Shown here: positions 1,908-55,975 of the stretch, piece by piece
How positions within the stretch are numbered: position 1 is the stretch's first letter
Layout of the letters: every line of letters begins with the position of its first letter
NCBI GenBank assembly: GCA_963823335.1
Contig: CAWGLD010000004.1
Location: forward strand, 1 to 64,000
DNA: 64,000 nucleotides
Source of the DNA: an uncultured delta proteobacterium
GTDB taxonomy: Bacteria > Desulfobacterota > Desulfobacteria > Desulfobacterales > B30-G6
Direction: 5' to 3'
The notes under the pieces: model-generated
Told to the model about the DNA's origin: nothing
What the model saw: the letters and a program-made list of their open reading frames with translations, nothing else
Databases searched by the model: none
Program-made: the position numbers and the translations under genes

Positions 1908-3341
1908 TTAGCGCCCGATGCTTTTTACAAGGGTTGCAAACCCGGTAAAATACTTTTTGATGTCATTGAAGGATCTGATCGATTTCAAAAAACGAAAAAT
2001 AACTGTCGGGCGCATGTAAAAAACACGCAGGGCCTTTTTTTGCAATTCGCTCAATTCTTCGATGGTTCGCCCCTCAGCCACAAAGGGGATGTCCTTCTCT
2101 CCTTTCCAGCCTGACCAGGTATTGTATCTTGACCAGTCGTAGGTTCTTATCTGTCCTTTTTGGTCCAGATCGTCAAACATGGCCGTTCCCGGATAGGGGA
2201 TTGTTATGGTAAATTGGGCCCATAGCGGATTGAGTTTTTTGGCAAAAGCGATTGTATCGAGGCTTTCCTGACGGGTTTCAGTGGGAAGCCCCAGCATGAA
2301 AAACCCGCGGATCGATATGCCCGTTTTTTGGGTTATCTTGAACGTCTCTTCGACTTGTTTCAGGGAGATCGATTTGTTGATACTGTCAAGCAAGCGCTGG
2401 CTGCCGGTTTCAACACCGTAGCTGATCTGCCAGCACCCGGCTTTACGCATCAGCTGCAACAGGGGCTCATCCACCGTATCGACCCGGCTTTCACAGGTCC
2501 ATCGGATCTTTCGACTGATGCCGCTTGAAATCATTTCGTTTAAAAGGCTTGTTAAAAATTTCTTGTTGGCTGTCAGGGTGTCGGCTTCTATATTGATCTG
2601 CGAAACATGATAGTTGTCAATAAGAATCCTTATCTCATCGATGATGCGGCCAATGCTGTGAGCACGAAAACTTCGCCCGAAAGTACGGGAGCAATACGTA
2701 CACTTGAAGGGGCAGCCCCTGGCAACGATGATGGTGGGGCAATATGAGTCACCGGAGACACGCGAAGCGGTCAAATGGTACTTTTCCATCGGCAGAAGAT
2801 GTCGGGCCGGCGGTGGTATTTGATCCAAATCTTTCAGAAAGGGTCTTGGGTCTGTTTTTATAATCGTATCTTTTTTCCTGAAACAGATACCGTTTACCTT
2901 ATCAAGCTGGTCCCGATTTTTGACGATGTCCGCCATGGTCAACTCCCCTTCGCCAATACCCACCACATCGGCTTCGGGGATTTCCCTCAAGGTTCTTTCC
3001 GGCAGGGCACTGCAATGGGGGCCGCCAAGTACGATCATGCCTTCAAAGTTAGCGGTCCTTAACGCCCTGCACAGTTTTTGAGCCGCCACAAAGACCGGCG
3101 TTAAAACCGAAATCCCGATAAGCGCATCTTTGTGGTGTAAAATCTTTTCAACCAGATCATCGACACCCAGGTTTTCAGCCTGGGCGTCGATGATCTGCAC
3201 GGTAATACCTTGCAATTCAAGATAAGCAGCAATATAGGCAATGCCCAAAGGCTCGCTCACGGCGCCGAATTTTTTCATGTCTTCGCCATAACGCTCCTTA
3301 AGGCTAAACGGCGGGTTGACCAGGACAACAGATGATTTCAT
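1908..3341 (-). CDS. B12-binding (class B) radical SAM protein
   Basis: N-terminal EPLGIAYIAA and LGGPH cobalamin-binding region; ARGCPFKCTYC CxxxCxxC; GVETGS motif. Confidence 0.9.
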   Translation of the reverse strand: MKSSVVLVNPPFSLKERYGEDMKKFGAVSEPLGIAYIAAYLELQGITVQIIDAQAENLGVDDLVEKILHHKDALIGISVLTPVFVAAQKLCRALRTANFEGMIVLGGPHCSALPERTLREIPEADVVGIGEGELTMADIVKNRDQLDKVNGICFRKKDTIIKTDPRPFLKDLDQIPPPARHLLPMEKYHLTASRVSGDSYCPTIIVARGCPFKCTYCSRTFGRSFRAHSIGRIIDEIRILIDNYHVSQINIEADTLTANKKFLTSLLNEMISSGISRKIRWTCESRVDTVDEPLLQLMRKAGCWQISYGVETGSQRLLDSINKSISLKQVEETFKITQKTGISIRGFFMLGLPTETRQESLDTIAFAKKLNPLWAQFTITIPYPGTAMFDDLDQKGQIRTYDWSRYNTWSGWKGEKDIPFVAEGRTIEELSELQKKALRVFYMRPTVIFRFLKSIRSFNDIKKYFTGFATLVKSIGR

Positions 3342-28810: not shown

Positions 28811-29032
28811 AGGTGTTGACTTGAATTTACACAATCGTATTTGTCCAGATTGTCCCACCGATGAACAGTTGTATCACCCAAAAGTGTTTGCACTGACATA
28901 ATTCAAACCGTAGGTTTAATGATAAAAACTGACCTTGCGCGGCAAGCTTCAAATCTTTAGTTTGCCACAATTCTTTAGCGATAACGTAATATTACTCTGG
29001 CCTGATTATGCTTTCCATAAATATTCCGGTAG

Positions 29033-29116
29033 CCGGTGTGCGAAAATAATCACAACTGGTCAAAGCTTGTATTCATAGGCCCCTCCGTGGTACGCTGGGC
29101 ATGACCAGATGGTATC
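29033..29116 (+). repeat. Duplicated motif of about 85 bp, copy 1 (copy 2 at 31999-32082)
   Basis: Shared blocks CCGGTGTGCGAAAATAATCA, TTGTATT and TACGYTGGGCATGACCAGATGGTATC at equal spacing. Confidence 0.8.
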
Positions 29117-29221
29117 AGCTTGATAAATGGGCATCTCCATTTATCACCACTTGGCATAATCTTGTAATACTGGCAAGTAATCTCAGGTTTGATAATCTAT
29201 TTTGTATCGTAGGATCTGTTT

Positions 29222-29659
29222 ATGAAAATTACCTATATATTTTTTGGATCTGTTTATGGGATTTTTATCTTATTTGTCAGTATTGGCAGTGCAGCCAATT
29301 ACACATTTACCTGTGACAAACCCCATCGAAATGACAATGTAATTGGATACAAGGTCTATTACAGGTTGAATTCCGGTACATACGATGGAGAATTTGAGCG
29401 GTGTCAAACTACCGATCCGAAATTTGATCGTGTTAAACATACTGGAAAATCGATTTGCCGGATGTTGCTGAAGAATACTGTTTTGCCGCTACAGCTTGGG
29501 AGCTGATGATTTCGAAAGCAATCCTTCCTAATGAAATTGGCTACGGTACGACCTGCGGTCAAATAAATTACGTAACAATCGGTGGAGCATGGTGGTGGCG
29601 ATGGAGGCGGCGGCGGTGGTGGTGGTGGATGTTTTATTGGGGCGATGGAAGTGGAATGA
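29222..29659 (+). pseudogene. Frameshifted paralog of the downstream FN3-like / CFI-box exported protein
   Basis: Pieces in different frames align to 29672-30112: signal peptide, NDNVIGYKVYYR, LPDVAEEYCFAATA, NEIGYGTTCGQI, then GGGDGGGGGGGGGCFIGAMEVE*. Confidence 0.75.
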
Positions 29660-29671
29660 TAAAGGACGATT

Positions 29672-30112
29672 ATGAAAATTGCCTTTATGTTTATTGTATC
29701 CGTTCTGGGATTATGTATCTTTTCCGTCAATGTAGGTCGTACAGGCGAATACCACTTTGTCTGGGATCCACACCCCAATGACCAGGTTGTTGAATTTAGG
29801 ATCTATTACAGGATTAATTCCAGTCTTTACAATAAGACAGATTTTGAACCGGTGCAAATTAGCAATCCGAAATATAATCCAACCAAGCCAGACTGGATAT
29901 TAGTATTGCCGGATGTTACTGAAGAATACTGTTTTACCGTTACAGCGGTCGACGATAATGGTTATGAAAGTCATCATTCCAATGAAATAGGCATGGGCAC
30001 GACATGCGGTCAAATAGTTAATGATGGCAGTGTAAATGATGGTAGGAGCGGAGGTGGCAGATGTTTTATTTTACAGGGCATTCTACATGACAAACGATGG
30101 GATTCTTATTAA
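29672..30112 (+). CDS. Small exported FN3-like protein with Gly-rich CFI-box-like C-terminus
   Basis: Signal peptide; FN3-like pattern WDP...FRIYY...YCFTVTAVDDNGYES..SNEI; C-terminal GGGRCFI. Confidence 0.7.
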   Translation: MKIAFMFIVSVLGLCIFSVNVGRTGEYHFVWDPHPNDQVVEFRIYYRINSSLYNKTDFEPVQISNPKYNPTKPDWILVLPDVTEEYCFTVTAVDDNGYESHHSNEIGMGTTCGQIVNDGSVNDGRSGGGRCFILQGILHDKRWDSY

Positions 30113-30578
30113 ATCTTTTGTTTTCGGTCCTGCCTTGGAATCCGATTACGGGTCAAGTTTAGAAATACTCTACAAAATACTTAAGGGAAAATACCCGATG
30201 GTGCCAAAACTTGGTTTCGAGATTGTAGACGTCAGGGATGTTGCCGCTCTACACCGCTTGGCATACGAATCTCCCGATGCTATAGGAAGACGCTTTCTCT
30301 GTTCAAGTGGGTTTCGGTGGTTGAAGGACATGTCTATATTTATTCGTGAAAAATTTCCTGAACATCGGGAAAAGATATCTGTCAGGGAAATGCCGAATTT
30401 ACTTTTCAAAATCATTTCATTTTTCGATGGTAGTGCTGCCAGGTTTGTACCCTATTTGGAAATTAAAAGAGAGATGGATATCAGCCCTGCACGGGAGGTG
30501 CTTGGATGGAATCCCAGGTCGCCAGAAGAATCTATTAAATCAGGTGCTCGTAGCCTTATTGATTTTGGGATTGTATAG
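30110..30578 (+). pseudogene. C-terminal fragment of an extended SDR (dihydroflavonol/aldehyde reductase-like)
   Basis: VFGP, VDVRDVAALHRLA, GRRFLCS, AREVLGWNPRS are present; the N-terminal Rossmann GxxGxxG region is absent. Confidence 0.75.
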
Positions 30579-30654
30579 GCAAAATATAATTTAGATTTCC
30601 AAAATGGGAAGGATCCAAAACAATACTATCTATAGCTTTAACCGGGAGGAAAGT

Positions 30655-31191
30655 ATGACATCACTCACAGACCGAATGATTCGGGCAGCAAAACTGGATA
30701 CAAGCCTTTATGAAGAGGTCGAAGCGGATAAAGAGGCCATGGGACAAGCCATGACAGTTGTTATTCTTTCCAGTGCTGCAGCAGGAATCGGAACTATCGG
30801 TGCAGCAGGGCTGAAGGGTCTTATTTTCGGAACCATAGCTGCTCTTGCAGGCTGGTTTATCTGGGCGTATTTGACATATGCTATTGGGACAAAGTTATTA
30901 GCTGAGCCACAAACAAAAGCAGACTATGGGGAATTACTGCGTACTATCGGTTTCTCCAGCTCTCCTGGAGTGCTTCGTATTTTTAGTATCATTCCCATGC
31001 TTGGGAACATCCTAAATTTGATTTGCGGTATCTGGATGCTGGTAGCGATGGTCATTGCCGTAAGACAAGCACTTGACTATAAAAGTACTTGGCGGTCAGT
31101 TGCTGTTTGCCTTATTGGTTTTATTGTTCAACTAATTGTTTTTGGTTTGTTTTTTCGGTTGGTAGGGGGATTCGGACCTTCACAACCATAG
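30655..31191 (+). CDS. YIP1-family membrane protein
   Basis: RMIRAAKLD..LYEEVEAD, about 5 TM helices, AVRQALD; GGGAGGA RBS. Confidence 0.8.
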   Translation: MTSLTDRMIRAAKLDTSLYEEVEADKEAMGQAMTVVILSSAAAGIGTIGAAGLKGLIFGTIAALAGWFIWAYLTYAIGTKLLAEPQTKADYGELLRTIGFSSSPGVLRIFSIIPMLGNILNLICGIWMLVAMVIAVRQALDYKSTWRSVAVCLIGFIVQLIVFGLFFRLVGGFGPSQP

Positions 31192-31249
31192 TTTATATTT
31201 TAGGCTTTTCTCCCGATTTGTTGTAGAAATGCTGTTGGTGGAAGCCTTG

Positions 31250-31283
31250 TCGAAATCGGGATCGCTATCGGGATCGGGATCGA
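31250..31283 (+). repeat. Left arm of a 34-bp inverted repeat built from ATCGGG hexamers
   Basis: TCGAAATCGGGATCGCTATCGGGATCGGGATCGA; 30/34 identical to the reverse complement of 31785-31818. Confidence 0.92.
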
Positions 31284-31284
31284 G

Positions 31285-31680
31285 ATGGTATTAGGTCATG
31301 AAAAATTAGACGTTTACCGCCTTTCAATCGGCTATGTCGCATGGGTTTATGAAAAGTGTGCCAGGCTGAGAGGCGTCCATCGTTCAGCAAGAGACCAGTG
31401 GCTTCGAGCCAGCCAGTCGATTGCGCTTAATATTGCAGAAGGCAACGGTAAGACAGCGAAGGCTGATCGGCGGCGATATTTCGAAATAGCGCGTGGGTCG
31501 GCATTGGAGTGTGCCGCAATCCAAGATGTCTTGGTAGTCGGAAAAGGTTTGGATAAAGTAGAAAGCCGGCAGCGCAAAGGTGAATTGGACCGCATTGCTG
31601 CAATGCTTAGTCGATTGGGCGGCAGGGGTTATAGCGTAAAGGAAGGGTTCGGGGAATACGGCTATACTGAACGGCAATAG
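31285..31680 (+). CDS. Four-helix-bundle protein (23S rRNA IVS-protein / bAvd-like family)
   Basis: HEKLDVY, DQWLRASQSIALNIAEGNGK, RYFEIARGSALECAA, AMLSRL. Confidence 0.92.
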   Translation: MVLGHEKLDVYRLSIGYVAWVYEKCARLRGVHRSARDQWLRASQSIALNIAEGNGKTAKADRRRYFEIARGSALECAAIQDVLVVGKGLDKVESRQRKGELDRIAAMLSRLGGRGYSVKEGFGEYGYTERQ

Positions 31681-31783
31681 CGAGCGCATTCCCCGTAGCT
31701 TGCTGCGGGGTTAGCGAGCGAATCAAATAGATAAAATCCTTACCGCGAAGATTCCCTGCAGCTTGCTGCAGGGTACTCTTCAA
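31667..31783 (-). mobile_element. Family B palindromic miniature element inserted in the 3' end of the four-helix-bundle gene
   Basis: Reverse complement reads TTGAAG..CCCTGCAGCAAGCTGCAGGG..GATTCGCTCGCTAACCCCGCAGCAAGCTACGGGGAATGCGCTCGCTATTGCCGTTCAG, matching 32293-32435. Confidence 0.85.
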
Positions 31784-31784
31784 T

Positions 31785-31818
31785 TCGATCCCGATCCCGA
31801 TCCCGATAGCGATTTCGA
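31785..31818 (-). repeat. Right arm of the 34-bp hexamer inverted repeat
   Basis: TCGATCCCGATCCCGATCCCGATAGCGATTTCGA. Confidence 0.92.
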
Positions 31819-31863
31819 TAAGATATAGCCCGAGCTGTATTTCTCTTGACCCGAATTTTGGAG

Positions 31864-31896
31864 CCCTTTCCTCCAACTAAATTGGGAGAAGATCCA
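31864..31896 (+). repeat. Isolated right end of family A element
   Basis: CCCTTTCCTCCAACTAAATTGGGAGAAGATCCA matches the right ends at 33144 and 38836. Confidence 0.8.
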
Positions 31897-31998
31897 TATT
31901 TTATTCCCGCATTATAATAGATATCTCCTAATTTCCGAGATCTCAATAGAATGCGATACAGCTCCAACAAAACAAGGTTAACAGACCCCTAAATATTT

Positions 31999-32082
31999 CC
32001 GGTGTGCGAAAATAATCATCACCGACCACTTTTTGTATTGATGGGGATCTTCGCTATACGTTGGGCATGACCAGATGGTATC
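31999..32082 (+). repeat. Duplicated motif of about 85 bp, copy 2
   Basis: See 29033-29116. Confidence 0.8.
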
Positions 32083-32292
32083 GGTAATAATTTTCTTGAC
32101 ATTGCCCGGAGCCCATAATATTTAAATTTTAATGTCGTGCTCATCTGAAGCTCAATCTCACCTCCAATGCGACCTACATCTTCTAGCTCTAATTTCGCTA
32201 ATTTAATTCTGCATCGTACCGCACTTTCTGAACCTCTCCGCTAAAGTAGATAACGGTTTCTCGCATTTTTTTACCTAATAATCAGGTGAGGA

Positions 32293-32435
32293 TTGAAGAA
32301 CCTCGCAGCAAGCTACGAGGAATGTTCTGCTGTGCGACAGTGCTTCGCAGCGACCGTAAGGAATTCTGTCTAATTTAGATTCGCTCGCTAACCCCGCAGT
32401 AGGCTACGGGGAATGCGCTCGCTGTTGCGGTTCAA
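32293..32435 (+). mobile_element. Family B palindromic miniature element (full, 143 bp)
   Basis: TTGAA...TTCAA ends; two related hairpins CCTCGCAGCAAGCTACGAGG and CCCCGCAGTAGGCTACGGGG; near-identical to 45739-45905. Confidence 0.85.
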
Positions 32436-32465
32436 TAAACCGTAAACGAGAGGTGAATAGACAAT

Positions 32466-32723
32466 ATGAAGACATTAGACGAACGCAAAAAAGAGTTTGC
32501 TATCACTTCTGATAATCTGACAGCGTATTGGAGAGAAGGTAAAAGAGATCTAAAACGATTCAATAAACTTGTGAAGCTGTATAAGATTGCCGGTGATAAT
32601 TTAACCAACCACCCAGACTATGAAGAGCCTATGCTCCGGCTGGCAAGCGAGCATTATTATAGGCGATACTACTGGCTGGCGGGTATTTACCGGCACAATC
32701 ATACCGAGAAGCATGTCAGATGA
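32466..32723 (+). CDS. Hypothetical protein (85 aa)
   Basis: GAGGTG RBS upstream; no recognised family. Confidence 0.5.
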   Translation: MKTLDERKKEFAITSDNLTAYWREGKRDLKRFNKLVKLYKIAGDNLTNHPDYEEPMLRLASEHYYRRYYWLAGIYRHNHTEKHVR

Positions 32724-32810
32724 TTCTTTAGGTACTACGACCGCCGTGTATCTATAAAGACCATACACGCATCACACCACGCTTTAGCCTGCGTATGAAT
32801 TTAATTATAA

Positions 32811-33144
32811 TGGATCATCTCCCAAAGAGTTGATCCAAATTAAGGATTCAAGGATTCCAGGGGCCCAGGGGTCGAGTGAGATGAAGTGAGGTGCCAGCTA
32901 AATGCTTAAGAATTATAAAGAGTTAAATGTCTGGAAAAAAGCGTATAAACTTTGTTTGGATAAACGATGATATCCGGTGATTTGGATTATATGAACAAGG
33001 AAAAGCTTCAGGGTTTAAGAGAGGCGCTTGGGAATGTAGAGAGAATGCTAAAAGCCATGATCACATCCCTGGAAAACAAACACTTGAATCCTTGAATCCT
33101 GGATTCCTTGAACCCTTTCTCCCAACTTATTGGGAGAAGATCCA
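32811..33144 (+). mobile_element. Family A element copy 1 (334 bp): TIR, octamer arms and an internally deleted four-helix-bundle gene
   Basis: TIR TGGATCATCTCCCAA / TTGGGAGAAGATCCA (14/15); inverted AGGATTCA-type arrays at about 32843-32878 and 33081-33116. Confidence 0.88.
32902..33095 (+). pseudogene. Internally deleted four-helix-bundle gene
   Basis: MLKNYKELNVWKKAYKLCLD (family N-terminus) is joined out of frame to ISGDLDY...NVERMLKAMITSLENKHLNP* (family C-terminus); the core SNIAEG helices are missing. Confidence 0.8.
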
Positions 33145-33166
33145 TATATTTTAACGAGGTGAGTTA

Positions 33167-33400
33167 ATGGATGCCTTGGCAATTGCAATTGTCTTATCAT
33201 TAGTGGGTCTGCTGCTTCTTCTGTTTTTAGATATGCGAAATGTACTCTTCCGTAGAATAAATATAAAGCGTTCAAGAAGAGAACGACGTAAAAGTTTTAT
33301 TGCTTCAAAAAACCGCATGAGGAGATCTGGTAATGATCGCAGACAGTCAGCGCAAAGCCTAAGTTATAGTAACGAAAAATTGAAATTCAGAGGTCTATAG
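33167..33400 (+). CDS. Small membrane-anchored Arg-rich protein
   Basis: GAGGTG RBS; N-terminal TM helix; RRERRK...RRSGNDRR. Confidence 0.6.
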   Translation: MDALAIAIVLSLVGLLLLLFLDMRNVLFRRINIKRSRRERRKSFIASKNRMRRSGNDRRQSAQSLSYSNEKLKFRGL

Positions 33401-33408
33401 TGGTTGAA

Positions 33409-33536
33409 ATGCGGAACGGCAAAGAGCGCAGGCTCATAAAGAAAAGAGATGTGGCCGTACTTCTTCATACAGTGGCCCAGAAAGAAGGGCTATCAAGTAC
33501 CGCAGAAGTGACAAAGACAGGAGGTTAAAAGATTAG
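33409..33536 (+). pseudogene. Probable frameshifted Arg-rich micro-protein with a YSGPERR motif
   Basis: MRNGKERR from 33409; the frame from 33435 reads HKEKRCGRTSSYSGPERRAIKYRRSDKDRRLKD*. Confidence 0.45.
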
Positions 33537-33829
33537 GATTTCACATCATCATAGGGGTGCTTATTGTTGGGACATAAGAGGTACCCGTGATAGGATGATC
33601 TCTCTAAATATTTTAGTTTTGCCCATGGGCTGTGCTTGTCGCAGCCCTATTTATTTTGTTCATAAATTGACATGCCCAGCAGAATATGATCATTTAAAAT
33701 AAATACCCCACAAGTATTAACCTGATTCTATTCAGAAATATTATTACATAAAATTCTTGTTTCAGCCGACACTACTATATCTGATTATCAAGTGCCATGG
33801 ATAAAACACCTCAAAAGGAAGGCGATGAT

Positions 33830-34790
33830 ATGAGTAGGACAACGAAAAAACTTCTTGTAATAGTTCCTGTAATCATTCTTTTGGTCTTAATTTCCTGTTA
33901 TTTTTTATTCCCAGGAGCTATCTTTAAAACTCTGGTAAAAATGGAAAGAAATGCGGCTGGTCTTGAACAAAGAAGCATAGAAGTGGGCAATCTGCACATC
34001 GAATATTTAGAAGGTGGCAAAGGGGAAGTGTTGGTATTACTGCACGGATTTGGTGGAAATAAAGACAATTGGACACGAGTGGCAAAGTATCTCACACCTC
34101 ATTTTAGGGTAATTGCCCCTGATCTTCCAGGTTTTGGAGAAAGTTCAAGTGATATGGGGGCTTCATACACCTATGCCGCACAAGTTGACCGACTGCATGA
34201 ATTTATTAGGGCGTTAGAGTTGGGTGTATTCCATCTTGCAGGCAATTCGATGGGAGGTAATATTGCTGGCAATTATACAGCAAAATTTAATGATGAAATT
34301 AGTAGCTTGTGGCTTATTGCTACAGGTGGGATTATTTCATCACAACCAAGTGAACTGAGCCAAAGATTAAAATCAGGCGCCCGGAATCCTTTTGGTCGTG
34401 GAAAATACGGAAGAATACGATCAGCTATTAGATTTCATTTTTGTTAATATACCTCCTATTCCTGGCGCAATAAAACGGTACCTCACTCAGGAAGCCATAG
34501 ATCATCGTCCGCTTAATGAAATAATCTTTAAGCAAATTACATCTACTGATACTGATAATTTTGTTCCTCTCGAAGTGCTGCTTAAGAATGCGCAAACCAA
34601 AACCTTAATTTTATGGGGGGATAATGATAGAGTACTACATATGTCTGGAGCTAAAATTCTCGAATCAGTCATGCCAAATGCAAAAAGTGTTATCATGAAA
34701 AATATTGGTCATGTTCCTATGGTGGAAAAACCTCAAGAATCTGCGAATATTTTTTTGAACTTTATCGGGAAAAAGGACTCGCAAGTCTAA
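33830..34790 (+). pseudogene. Alpha/beta hydrolase (lipase/esterase) with one frameshift near 34390
   Basis: LLHGFGG, PDLPGFG and GNSMGG in the first frame; WGDND and GHVPM in the second; removing one T from CCTTTTGG restores NPLVVENTEEY. Confidence 0.85.
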
Positions 34791-36291: not shown

Positions 36292-37215
36292 CTAAAAACG
36301 TGAGATGTGAGACGTAAGACGTGAGACGGGGAGCAGAGGGTATGTCGTCAAAACATCAATTTGATGAATCAGGTAATCAGAAAAAAAAGCGTCAGACCAA
36401 AGACTCAACTTATCTTGATGCGCTACATTCCTCAAGAATGGCTCAACGTCTTTTTTGGCCAGATCGAAATCAATCTCCTTGATCTTGGCAGACAGCAGTT
36501 CAAGCAGTTTTTCTCTGGTCAACGCCTCGGAGGTATCAATATGACCTGTTTGCACCATCTTGTTTTTAAGAAATCCCAGATCACATGGGGTATTGTTTTT
36601 CACAAACCAAACTAAATCATACCAATCCCGGCCCTTGATGTTGGTTCTCACGGTTCGGCACAATAGTGCATGCATTTTGCCGGCAAGCAGACAGGGCAGT
36701 GTCATGGTTTTAATGGTAAACGGAATCGGATTCAGATGATATTTGGTGTCACTGGCAAACCCTGTGACCGGATCTTGATCAATTTCCAATTTGATCTTCA
36801 TCACGGCATTTTTATGGGTTTTCAGATTTGAATCAATTTTTAATAAATGGATCAGTGTATTGGCTTTTATAAAAGCCGAGTCTACCGTGCTTTTATTCTT
36901 TTTGTTGATTTCTTCTGTGGAAACCTCAAAACCCCACAACGCCAGCTCTGATTTTACCGCTTCAAGATACTTTTTAAGGTTGAAGTCCTTTTCCGGCTGA
37001 ATTAGAGAAAAATCTACATCCTCGGAGAAACGATCCAACTTGTGAAGAATTCGTAATGCGCTTCCCCCGTAAAAAACAGCTTTTTCATAAAATTTTGAAC
37101 GCCATAAACCAAGCAGAATGATCTCCTGTATGATCTCTTTCAACGCATTTTCATGATCATGAATTGTGTGCAATTCATACCTGCGGAGCATTTGATCAAC
37201 CTTATCATCAAACAT
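36292..37215 (-). CDS. abiEii: AbiEii-family nucleotidyltransferase toxin (type IV TA)
   Basis: FYGGSALR...RFSEDVDF, KLEID, AGKMHA, KGRDWYD. Confidence 0.9.
   Translation of the reverse strand: MFDDKVDQMLRRYELHTIHDHENALKEIIQEIILLGLWRSKFYEKAVFYGGSALRILHKLDRFSEDVDFSLIQPEKDFNLKKYLEAVKSELALWGFEVSTEEINKKNKSTVDSAFIKANTLIHLLKIDSNLKTHKNAVMKIKLEIDQDPVTGFASDTKYHLNPIPFTIKTMTLPCLLAGKMHALLCRTVRTNIKGRDWYDLVWFVKNNTPCDLGFLKNKMVQTGHIDTSEALTREKLLELLSAKIKEIDFDLAKKDVEPFLRNVAHQDKLSLWSDAFFSDYLIHQIDVLTTYPLLPVSRLTSHISRF
36298..36332 (+). repeat. Heptamer tandem array (ACGTGAG) x5 overlapping the 3' end of abiEii
   Basis: acgtgag atgtgag acgtaag acgtgag acgggga. Confidence 0.8.
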
Positions 37216-38081: not shown

Positions 38082-38315
38082 ATGTCCAGCCACGCATCCA
38101 ATGCTAAGCTACTCTTCACCAATTGTATCAATCTCAACTCAAGAAGCTGCCGGTATACAAAGAAACCTGAAACTATCCTGTCCCTGTTCAGCGATCCAGA
38201 AAATTTCGCGGTCAGTGATCAGAAGATTCACGAACTGAACGACATATGTTCCCAATGTGATTCATACCATATGCCTGACAAATTAAAAGATTTGGATCAT
38301 CTCCCAAAGAGTTGA
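38082..38315 (+). CDS. Small Cys-containing hypothetical protein; C-terminus supplied by element A copy 2
   Basis: AAGGAGGT RBS; CINLNSRSC and CSQC; last codons and stop fall inside the TIR. Confidence 0.55.
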   Translation: MSSHASNAKLLFTNCINLNSRSCRYTKKPETILSLFSDPENFAVSDQKIHELNDICSQCDSYHMPDKLKDLDHLPKS

Positions 38316-38555
38316 TCCAAATTAAGGATTCTAGGATTCCAGGAGTCCAGGGTTCGAGTGAGATGAAGTGAGGCATCAGCTAAATGCTTAAGAAGTATAA
38401 AGAGCTAAAAGTCTGGAAAACAAACACTTGAATCCTTGAATCCTGGACTCCTTGTACCCTTTCTCCCAACTAACCCTCATGTCCGGGGCGGTCACAACGA
38501 AGGATGAAAATATTGATGAGAATGATGGCTATTTTCATATAAATTGGGAGAAGAT
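38293..38555 (+). mobile_element. Family A element copy 2 (deleted form with a nested 66-bp insertion)
   Basis: Same TIR and arms as 32811; lacks 138 bp between two CTGGAAAA; insert 38474-38539 is flanked by TAA. Confidence 0.88.
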
Positions 38556-38639
38556 TAAAAGATTTGCAGTGACCGTTGCGATTCGTGCTATTTATACTTG
38601 CCTTATCTGCTTCCTGTAACTATATTGGATGATTAATTT

Positions 38640-38836
38640 TGGATCATCTCCCAAGGAGTTGATCCAAATTAAGGATTCAAGGATTCCAGGGGTCCAGGGC
38701 TCGAGTGAGATGAAGTGAGGCATCAGCTAAATGCTTAAGAATTATAAAGAGTTAAAAGTCTGGAAAACAAACACTTGAATCCTTGAATCCTTGACTCCTT
38801 GAACCCTTTCTCCCAATCTAATTGGGAGAAGATCCA
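38640..38836 (+). mobile_element. Family A element copy 3 (197 bp, deleted form)
   Basis: TGGATCATCTCCCAA...TTGGGAGAAGATCCA; same CTGGAAAA junction as copy 2. Confidence 0.9.
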
Positions 38837-41533: not shown

Positions 41534-41787
41534 CTCCACCCGAGGATCGGGTGGGCTCAAGAAGCCCCCTCGAAGGGGGCTGGAATATCCAATATCGAAT
41601 ATCGAATACATGAATTTCGAAGTGATGCTTCCCGGTTTTTAGAATAAAGGAAGATAGAGCGCAGCGATACAACACTTCAATATTGAACATTCCTTGTTCG
41701 ACATTCGATATTTTCCTTTTTAATTTTCACCGTATCGGTAGAACCTTTCCGGGTTCTCCACCATGGTTGGAAGTTTTTAGATCAGAA
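41534..41787 (+). repeat. Family C composite repeat, copy 1 (GC hairpins plus inverted GAATATC heptamer arms)
   Basis: GCCCCCTCGAAGGGGGC; core AAGATAGAGCGCAGCGATAC; shared with 43784, 47104 and 42800(-). Confidence 0.85.
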
Positions 41788-55921: not shown

Positions 55922-55975
55922 TTTGGTGTTTGGTGTTTGGTGTTTTGTGTCTGGTGTTTTGTGTTTGGTGTTTGT
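55922..55975. repeat. Heptamer tandem array (TTTGGTG) x about 7 directly upstream of oleA
   Basis: tttggtg tttggtg tttggtg ttttgtg tctggtg ttttgtg tttggtg. Confidence 0.9.

Follow-up and report, generated by a model that had tools for sequence, protein, structure and literature searches.

What moves a small four-helix-bundle gene that stands between two mirror-image arrays of a six-letter word? The question is raised by positions 31203-31895 of the 64,000-nucleotide stretch analysed here, which we call the window (positions 1 to 64,000 of contig CAWGLD010000004.1, assembly GCA_963823335.1, from an uncultured delta proteobacterium of the Desulfobacterales lineage B30-G6), where an open reading frame (ORF) of the PF05635 family lies within arms made of ATCGNN units. 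PF05635 is a very large family to which, to our knowledge, no stand-alone function has been assigned; it is familiar mainly through the intervening sequences (IVSs) of ribosomal RNA (rRNA) and as a structural cousin of Avd, a protein of diversity-generating retroelements (DGRs). An earlier, sequence-only reading of the window had proposed that gene and arms together form a mobile cassette that lacks a transposase and is bounded by the arms. Our analysis indicates that this claim of mobility is right in substance and wrong on the borders. The segment is very likely a non-autonomous transposon, either a mobile insertion cassette or a large MITE (a transposable element of miniature type with inverted repeats), which uses the ends of an ISL3-family insertion sequence (IS) and carries a self-contained module of a PF05635 gene and its ATCGNN arrays (Table 1).

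The borders of the element are set by comparison of its copies. The source genome holds 20 PF05635 matches, five of which score identically, and alignment of these five loci with 400-nt flanks reveals one 693-bp element, corresponding to 31203-31895, in surroundings that are unrelated. In all five copies the identity extends past the arms, by 43 nt on the left and 73 nt on the right, as far as imperfect terminal inverted repeats. The window copy is enclosed by an AT-rich 8-bp target duplication, and perfect 8-bp direct repeats are found at all five copies (AAAAAAGA, ATATTTTA, AAAAAAAT, TTATTTTT and AAAAAAAT). The 27-mer of the left end occurs five times in the genome at no more than one mismatch. 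Within the element the 131-amino-acid PF05635 ORF is the only family match, and there is no transposase gene. Five near-identical copies with target duplications thus place the gene in a transposase-less mobile unit, as the sequence-only reading had held, but the ends of this unit are the ISL3-type repeats with their 8-bp duplications and not the arms. That reading had correctly recognised a right end of the repeat family that we call family A behind the gene, and had overlooked the matching left end.

The state of the locus before insertion can be read in a relative, in line with the proposal of the sequence-only reading that an empty site be sought at orthologous Yip1 loci. Seven such loci, orthologous to the left neighbour of the element, were fetched, and similarity to genomes of the same genus ends at 31197-31202, which is the left border of the element. 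Only one of the seven (L122, from genome G129 of the same genus) has a readable empty site: behind its Yip1 stop codon stands one copy of ATACTTTA, and the sequence after it can be aligned to the right flank in the window. This downstream alignment, a short one of 52 columns, begins at the second ATATTTTA and scores 35, whereas none of 200 shuffles exceeds 24; among the seven loci, downstream synteny with relatives is otherwise lost. At the same Yip1 spot a second genome of the genus (G132, locus L121) has a different family A remnant. A third (G134) contains 125 matches to the element, and the nine that were aligned are 365-400-bp derivatives in which the middle of the ORF is gone while the arms and mostly the ends are kept. 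Read-level evidence was taken from Logan contigs, none of which bridges the insertion site. The joints between left-arm and right-arm words found in these contigs have sides of 21-28 nt and probably belong to other hexamer arrays or organisms. In one contig from an RNA library (X16), 31885 is linked to 31203 through 14 intervening letters, about eight of which complete the right end; this joint may come from two copies in tandem or from the closure of a circle.

The copies also record the order of events. One of the five (C7:100288-100873) is without the 112 nt at 31670-31781 and has one extra ATCGGG in its left arm, which makes six units. Because the C7 copy lacks these 112 nt, the family B repeat that they form is a later nested insertion between ORF and right arm, as had been supposed from the sequence; it is likewise absent from a 98% identical hexamer element in G132 (contig C20), and one X16 contig joins 31670 to 31784, the form without family B. 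In the C7 copy the ORF takes in the right arm and ends in an acidic tail (..EFDPDPDPDSDFDKI), and the native TAG stop codon of this uninterrupted form corresponds to 31826-31828. In the window gene the helical core is intact and the native tail has been exchanged for ..ERQ and a stop, since the family B insert interrupts the 3′ end of the ORF. The four copies that contain family B are identical to one another, and therefore at least three further transpositions took place after gene and right arm had been separated. Family B is itself a repeat of about 112-140 nt (31670-31781 and 32290-32432 in the window), with 103 BLAST pieces in the genome, 25 of which are at least 90 nt long, and a summed contig depth in sediment metagenomes that runs into the thousands.

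The ends of the element point to the enzyme that would move it. Copies of the right end were located in the genome by BLAST and plain patterns; the family A end motif has 43 matches, and a looser pattern has 71, some of them by chance. These ends pair into elements of 79-693 bp. Among 12 other paired elements that were read, five have perfect 8-bp duplications, one has a duplication with 7/8 positions identical and six have none, and the short family A elements have kept the ends, 8-mer arms and, of another PF05635 gene, no more than the opening and closing codons. The transposase of ISL3 elements, PF01610, is matched in 30 of 121 genomes sampled from the same order. Of the 30 PF01610 loci fetched, four are complete or near-complete elements that share the family A ends (L087, L088, L090 and L095), and the first 24 nt of the L088 end are identical to the right end of four sister copies (24/24). 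Because its ends match those of transposase-bearing ISL3 elements, we file the window element as an ISL3-type mobile insertion cassette or MITE, which an ISL3 transposase of the L088/L090 kind would move in trans. Three results weigh against this assignment. No PF01610 match was found in the source genome (completeness 93.9%), so that the trans-acting enzyme is one that we infer and do not see; in the genus only one of nine other genomes has a PF01610 match, a fragment; and the left terminal repeat of the element has diverged from the right. In the taxonomic family, PF01610 is matched in 4 of 15 genomes. The terminal repeats of this ISL3 subgroup (L087, L088, L090 and family A) each hold a small palindrome, TCTCCCAA ... 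TTGGGAGA, which resembles the xCCCAAC / GTTGGG pair of the integron-type cassettes described below, maybe by coincidence.

Within these ends, the gene is indeed boxed by inverted hexamer arms. The inverted repeat 31246-31283 / 31785-31822 covers 38 nt at 87% complementarity, and Tandem Repeats Finder reports period 6 with 5.3 copies at 31255-31286 and period 6 with 3.7 copies at 31786-31807. The left arm reads ATCGGG ATCGCT ATCGGG ATCGGG ATCGAG, and the right arm, as its reverse complement, ATCGAA ATCGCT ATCGGG ATCGGG ATCGGG ATCGAA. This unit readout agrees with the earlier statement that the variant unit ATCGCT is placed differently in the two arms, and unit-wise change of the arms is borne out by five versus six units between copies in this genome and by 5, 6, 11 and 13 within a single metagenome-assembled genome (MAG). 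The ORF had been said to start 2 nt past the left arm; the actual spacing after the last unit is 0-1 nt. In the 4.37-Mb genome there are ten ATCGNN arrays of at least four units, and these ten are the two arms of each of the five element copies.

Table 1. Coordinates of the element, its surroundings and the transposase-bearing elements that share its ends
Feature	Position in window or locus	Strand	Length	Remark
Left target-site duplication	31195-31202	.	8 bp	ATATTTTA
Left terminal inverted repeat, family A, ISL3 type	31203-31229	+		diverged; identity among the five copies starts sharply here
Left arm, TCGAA and five hexamer units (ATCGGG/ATCGCT/ATCGAG)	31246-31284	+		runs up to the start codon
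Four-helix-bundle gene	31285-31680	+	131 aa	PF05635, TIGR02436, predicted structure
Nested family B repeat	31670-31781	.	112 nt	two GC-rich hairpins; in 4/5 copies
Right arm, units CCCGAT/AGCGAT/TTCGAT	31785-31822	+		3′ end of the ORF in the uninterrupted form
Right terminal inverted repeat, family A, ISL3 type	31862-31895	-		identity among the copies ends sharply here
Right target-site duplication	31896-31903	.		ATATTTTA
Yip1-domain membrane protein gene, left neighbour	30604-31191	+		PF04893, E 1e-10
Sister family A element, 8-mer arms	32812-33143	+		arms AAGGATTC / CTTGAATC; internal-deletion derivative in which just the first and the last codons of another PF05635 gene are left
Two 8-mer-family deletion derivatives	38294-38835	+		38294 to ~38555 (right end split by an insert) and 38641-38835
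ISL3 element with PF01610 transposase	L087		1356 bp	8-bp duplication TTAATCTT
ISL3 element with PF01610 transposase	L090		1334 bp	8-bp duplication CAATTTAA
ISL3 element with PF01610 transposase	L088		1355 bp	
ISL3 element with PF01610 transposase	L095		~1345 bp	

Membership of the gene in its family is clear from two profiles, with 67.6 bits against a cut-off of 33.8 for PF05635 (E 1.3e-18) and 62.6 bits against a curated cut-off of 24 for TIGR02436. The predicted structure has helices at residues 4-25, 30-54, 59-85 and 91-113, with a disordered tail from residue 115 and a mean predicted local distance difference test score (pLDDT) of 80.6. Its top fold matches are 2GSC and 2RLD, with a template modelling (TM) score, normalised by target, of 0.86 for 2GSC_E (root-mean-square deviation 1.6) and 0.83-0.88 for the chains of 2RLD, followed by Avd chains of a DGR ribonucleoprotein and by 4DWL. 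A sequence search of the PDB with the 131-residue protein returned 2GSC, an entry of five chains and the closest solved relative, as the sole match, and a PADLOC run returned no match. Elsewhere in the window, the deletion derivative beginning at 38294 has its right-end hairpin (38455-38535) interrupted: about 60-70 nt have been inserted into the hairpin loop.

The association of PF05635 genes with inverted word arrays extends to other lineages of the family in this genome. By eye, inverted tandem arrays stand on both sides of 18 of the 20 PF05635 loci, with at least eight words of 6-8 nt in total, and each PF05635 lineage has its own word, with six words of 7-8 nt besides the hexamer. A comparison with control genes, which the sequence-only reading had suggested, gives the same picture: with 200-nt flanks, a flank inverted-repeat score of at least 15 is reached at 16 of the 20 PF05635 loci, among which the five element copies are not independent, versus 3 of 400 random ORFs of 90-220 amino acids. 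The two loci that lack arrays are tandem PF05635 genes (C4:64095-64409 and C4:64521-64838) just past the end of the window. Arrays also occur by themselves. A GAATATC array of 3.7 copies has an inverted partner 90 nt away (41583-41608 / 41697-41712) and makes a hairpin with no gene, and arrays of ACGTGAG (4.4 copies, 36298-36328) and TTTGGTG (7.6 copies, 55922-55974), for which no partner was found nearby, consist of words that serve as arms of PF05635 loci elsewhere in the genome.

Beyond the Desulfobacterales, gene and arms occur together across a wide range of bacteria. With the protein as query, this lineage alone yields 7624 relatives at E <= 1e-5, among which the 120 top clusters are 78-98% identical, and the C-termini of the relatives read D-x-D-x, which is the translated right arm. 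Genomic relatives, sampled at one genome per species, amounted to 433 stretches, and the best 80 of these (72-98% identity) are the loci considered in what follows. By their MAG labels they come from Desulfobacterales, Desulfuromonadales, Verrucomicrobiota, Kiritimatiellia, Lentisphaerota, Acidobacteriota, Nitrospirota, Planctomycetota, Gammaproteobacteria, Hydrogenedentes, Chitinispirillaceae, Chitinophagales and Zixibacteria. Under a strict pattern, 59 of the 80 loci have at least three hexamer units on both sides, and of the remaining 21, at least four run off the end of their contig. The arms have a median of six units on the left and five on the right, with left-arm vocabularies dominated by ATCGAA (138 units), ATCGGG (101) and ATCGCT (50). 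The numbers of units change fast: in one MAG, the left arms of four genes that are otherwise identical count 5, 6, 11 and 13 units. Purifying selection on the genes themselves is strong, and their synonymous sites are saturated (median pN 0.117 and pS 0.757, the nonsynonymous and synonymous divergence, for 2775 pairs among 75 sequences). Aspartate codons are GAT 255 / GAC 220 in the body of the gene and 397 / 66 in the right-arm tail (Fisher p 2e-27); this codon bias shows that the hexamer words have evidently been kept at the nucleotide level despite the saturation of synonymous sites. ISL3-type ends adjoin the gene at only one of the 80 loci, an 1132-bp contig (L001) that is 98% identical to the window copy, and none of the 80 adjoins rRNA. 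The module predates its ISL3-type vehicle and has a much wider distribution.

Some of these relatives travel in a vehicle of another kind. In a Verrucomicrobiota MAG, five near-identical copies form a unit that runs from GTTGGGG, directly before the left arm, to about 60 nt past the right arm, just before GTT. The tails of this unit and of 18 other loci picked by eye have, as folded single-stranded DNA, an attC-like layout, with the xCCCAAC / GTTGGG pair followed by a stem with two single-base bulges; these calls rest on our own folds and motifs, not on a dedicated attC model. A stricter generic scan places attC-like sites in 7 of the 80 loci, and in three of them (L006, L014 and L027) directly upstream of the cassette. 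In L014, a contig of an uncultured Ectothiorhodospiraceae MAG, two hexamer-arm cassettes lie head to tail at 2386-3030 with only an attC-like site between them, and another such site lies upstream. An integron integrase scores above its curated cut-off in three of five genomes with such loci, with partial matches in the other two, versus none of 14 controls. The module uses at least two unrelated vehicles, ISL3-type ends here and integron-type cassettes elsewhere. That the window copy is itself an integron cassette, moved to a secondary site by an integron integrase, is a reading to which we give next to no credence. It has in its favour the attC-like ends of relatives (L014, L041, L047, L006 and L040), the further attC-like sites directly upstream at three loci and the distribution of the integrase just given. 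The source genome, however, lacks an integron integrase (its best match to TIGR02249 reaches 88.5 bits, with the cut-off at 265), no attC-like CCCAAC...GTT tail stands behind the right arm of the window copy or of its 98% twin L001, and 8-bp duplications with terminal inverted repeats are not products of integrase action. The integron reading is thus contradicted for the window copy and stands for the relatives in other phyla.

If the mobile unit does not end at the arms, what do the arms do? Our first guess, held tentatively and ahead of the other candidates, is that they act in the transcript as an RNA stem. Paired arms would fold the message up behind a long stem with mismatches at regular intervals, and this stem could insulate the message, or release it from whatever host transcript it lies in, and could limit its translation; ORF-bearing 23S rRNA IVSs and RNase III may serve, by analogy, as the model. 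In favour of a stem, the left arm runs directly up to the start codon, the ORF has the right arm as its 3′ end, and the cassette form leaves no room for a promoter between its GTTGGGG start and the left arm; no sigma-70-like promoter site was found inside the element. The predicted RNA fold of the element has an energy of -271.8 kcal/mol (z -5.5), with the arms paired together and the terminal repeats paired together, and the sense fold beats the antisense fold in 21 of 25 whole elements versus 20 of 45 control gene stretches, which is suggestive only. Other results argue against this role. Counted by arm family, the preference for the sense strand holds in only six of eight, and the controls spread widely. 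Arm duplex energies of sense and antisense RNA show no difference (30 versus 24 loci, p 0.83). The fraction of units identical from arm to arm, at the best register, is 0.457 versus 0.379 between loci, with a full match in 2 of 59, and this weak unit-for-unit match does not agree with simple selection for a perfect stem. Contigs from an RNA library do cover the ORF (X16, 31267-31625, three differences), but contigs cannot show transcription, ends or cuts. As the vocabulary of words is kept and their order is not, recognition of the words by the encoded protein fits about as well. The word arrays would then be repeated RNA or DNA binding sites for a ring-shaped four-helix-bundle protein, which might regulate itself or package its own message or locus, a reading that we regard as possible though somewhat less probable than the stem. 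Consistent with it are the private word of each PF05635 lineage (six words of 7-8 nt and the hexamer), the conserved hexamer vocabulary beside an unconserved unit order and arm-to-arm match, the medians of six and five units per arm, and the five chains of 2GSC. This Xanthomonas structure is described as a homopentameric toroid in PMC4990558, and Avd chains of a DGR ribonucleoprotein are the next fold matches of our model. Word periods of 6, 7 and 8 nt offer no single geometry, however, and a pure binding-site model does not need the arrays to be always inverted, as they are.

Two further explanations would tie the arms or the protein to mobility itself. The sequence-only reading took gene and hexamer arms to be the mobile or excisable unit, with the arms as its ends and their stem looping out the gene as in a 23S IVS. 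The arms do enclose the gene precisely and accompany it across phyla in any surroundings, and known ORF-bearing IVSs have complementary ends that are cut by RNase III, as reported in PMC4990558. Yet no copy in the source genome is bounded at the arms, since identity reaches the ISL3-type ends and their duplications; the copies in the Verrucomicrobiota MAG also exceed the arms, from the GTTGGGG start to the attC-like end; the element still transposed after family B had parted gene and right arm; and 0 of the 80 related loci touch rRNA. The arms as ends for DNA mobility are contradicted by the borders of the copies, and we consider this explanation very improbable. Slightly better placed, and still quite unlikely, is the notion that the element needs the four-helix-bundle protein in order to move; the protein would bring in a recombinase, of the host or foreign, as a mobility factor of an unconventional kind, so that full-length copies would be 'autonomous' and short copies their dependants. 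It would account for the coexistence of full-length and internally deleted copies, which recalls pairs of IS and MITE, for five identical copies in an assembly that nevertheless has no transposase, and for the presence of the same gene in two unrelated kinds of vehicle; PMC4990558 cites Ralph and McClelland 1993 for the IVS ORF as a component of mobility. Against it, the protein is a helical bundle of 131 residues that bears no signature of a nuclease or recombinase, the element has ordinary ISL3 ends, as do elements with a transposase only, and MAGs commonly miss transposases. Beyond the RNA stem that we favour, a wider reading would join several of these threads. Protein and inverted word arrays may be one self-recognising module, in which a ring protein binds its own words in RNA or single-stranded DNA; the module, with no promoter of its own, would be a guest that any transcript can house and that unrelated vehicles can take up, and ORF-bearing 23S IVSs would be the same module landed in rRNA. 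We consider this unlikely as a whole, although far less so than the mobility readings above.

How does the element compare with systems already described? Mobile insertion cassettes have inverted repeats, a target duplication and a passenger gene with no transposase gene, and MIC231 of Bacillus cereus is mobilised in trans by the IS231A transposase, with the 'mic' of qnrD as a comparable case, according to PMC3913671. The window element has all the structural features of mobile insertion cassettes and MITEs. It differs from MIC231 and the qnrD mic in that its ends are of ISL3 and not IS231/IS4 type, with mobilisation in trans deduced from these ends, and from mobile insertion cassettes at large in that its passenger is always a PF05635 gene within inverted word arrays and many of its copies are gene-less and keep the arrays. 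With ISL3-family IS of the same order it shares near-identical terminal repeats (24/24 nt with L088) and the 8-bp AT-rich duplications, whereas it has no transposase and is 693 bp long versus 1334-1356 bp. A literature search on ISL3-derived MITEs gave nothing usable. The 23S IVSs of Coxiella burnetii and Leptospira carry a gene of the same PF05635 family, enclosed by complementary sequences capable of a long stem. According to PMC4990558, ORF-bearing IVSs are bordered by complementary ends, RNase III cuts the 28-bp stem of the C. burnetii S23p IVS, and S23p of Xanthomonas forms a homopentameric ring. Unlike IVSs, which occupy helix 9, 25 or 45 of 23S rRNA, the window element lies between a Yip1 gene and other DNA and not in rRNA, its stem is made of tandem words, and it has separate transposon ends, which account for its DNA mobility; the 23S gene of the source genome (C5:36999-40034) has no PF05635 match. 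Integron cassettes include related modules (75-87% protein identity) with attC-like 3′ ends in integrase-bearing genomes, some of them in tandem, whereas attC is missing from the window copy and an integron integrase from its genome. With DGR Avd the protein shares its fold (TM 0.74-0.78, normalised by target, to 8UB7_B and 4DWL_D, after 2GSC and 2RLD), but no Avd sequence matched in the PDB search, and no adjacent reverse transcriptase is present, as 29000-34000 holds no ORF longer than 216 amino acids; template and variable repeats were not searched for. We found no paper on PF05635 genes that are carried on ISL3-type cassettes, lie in integron cassettes or are flanked by word arrays, in a search whose coverage left subscription journals largely outside.

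An IS-derived cassette, presumably mobilised in trans, is an element of a known kind, and the part that deserves experiments is its cargo, a conserved gene with word arrays that is also found in integron cassettes. The PF05635 family is made tractable by this locus, where one of its members is carried by a transposon that was active recently and whose ends tell which enzyme to try. Gene and word arrays have been inherited together over about a dozen phyla, with selection at both the protein and the nucleotide level, which bears on the spread of ORF-bearing intervening sequences. The origin of IVSs is still called unclear in PMC4990558, which notes that a transposon origin or a mobility factor encoded by the ORF was proposed long ago. 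If the reading of protein and arrays as one self-recognising module were true, it would offer a concrete, testable answer to this 30-year-old question of where IVSs come from.

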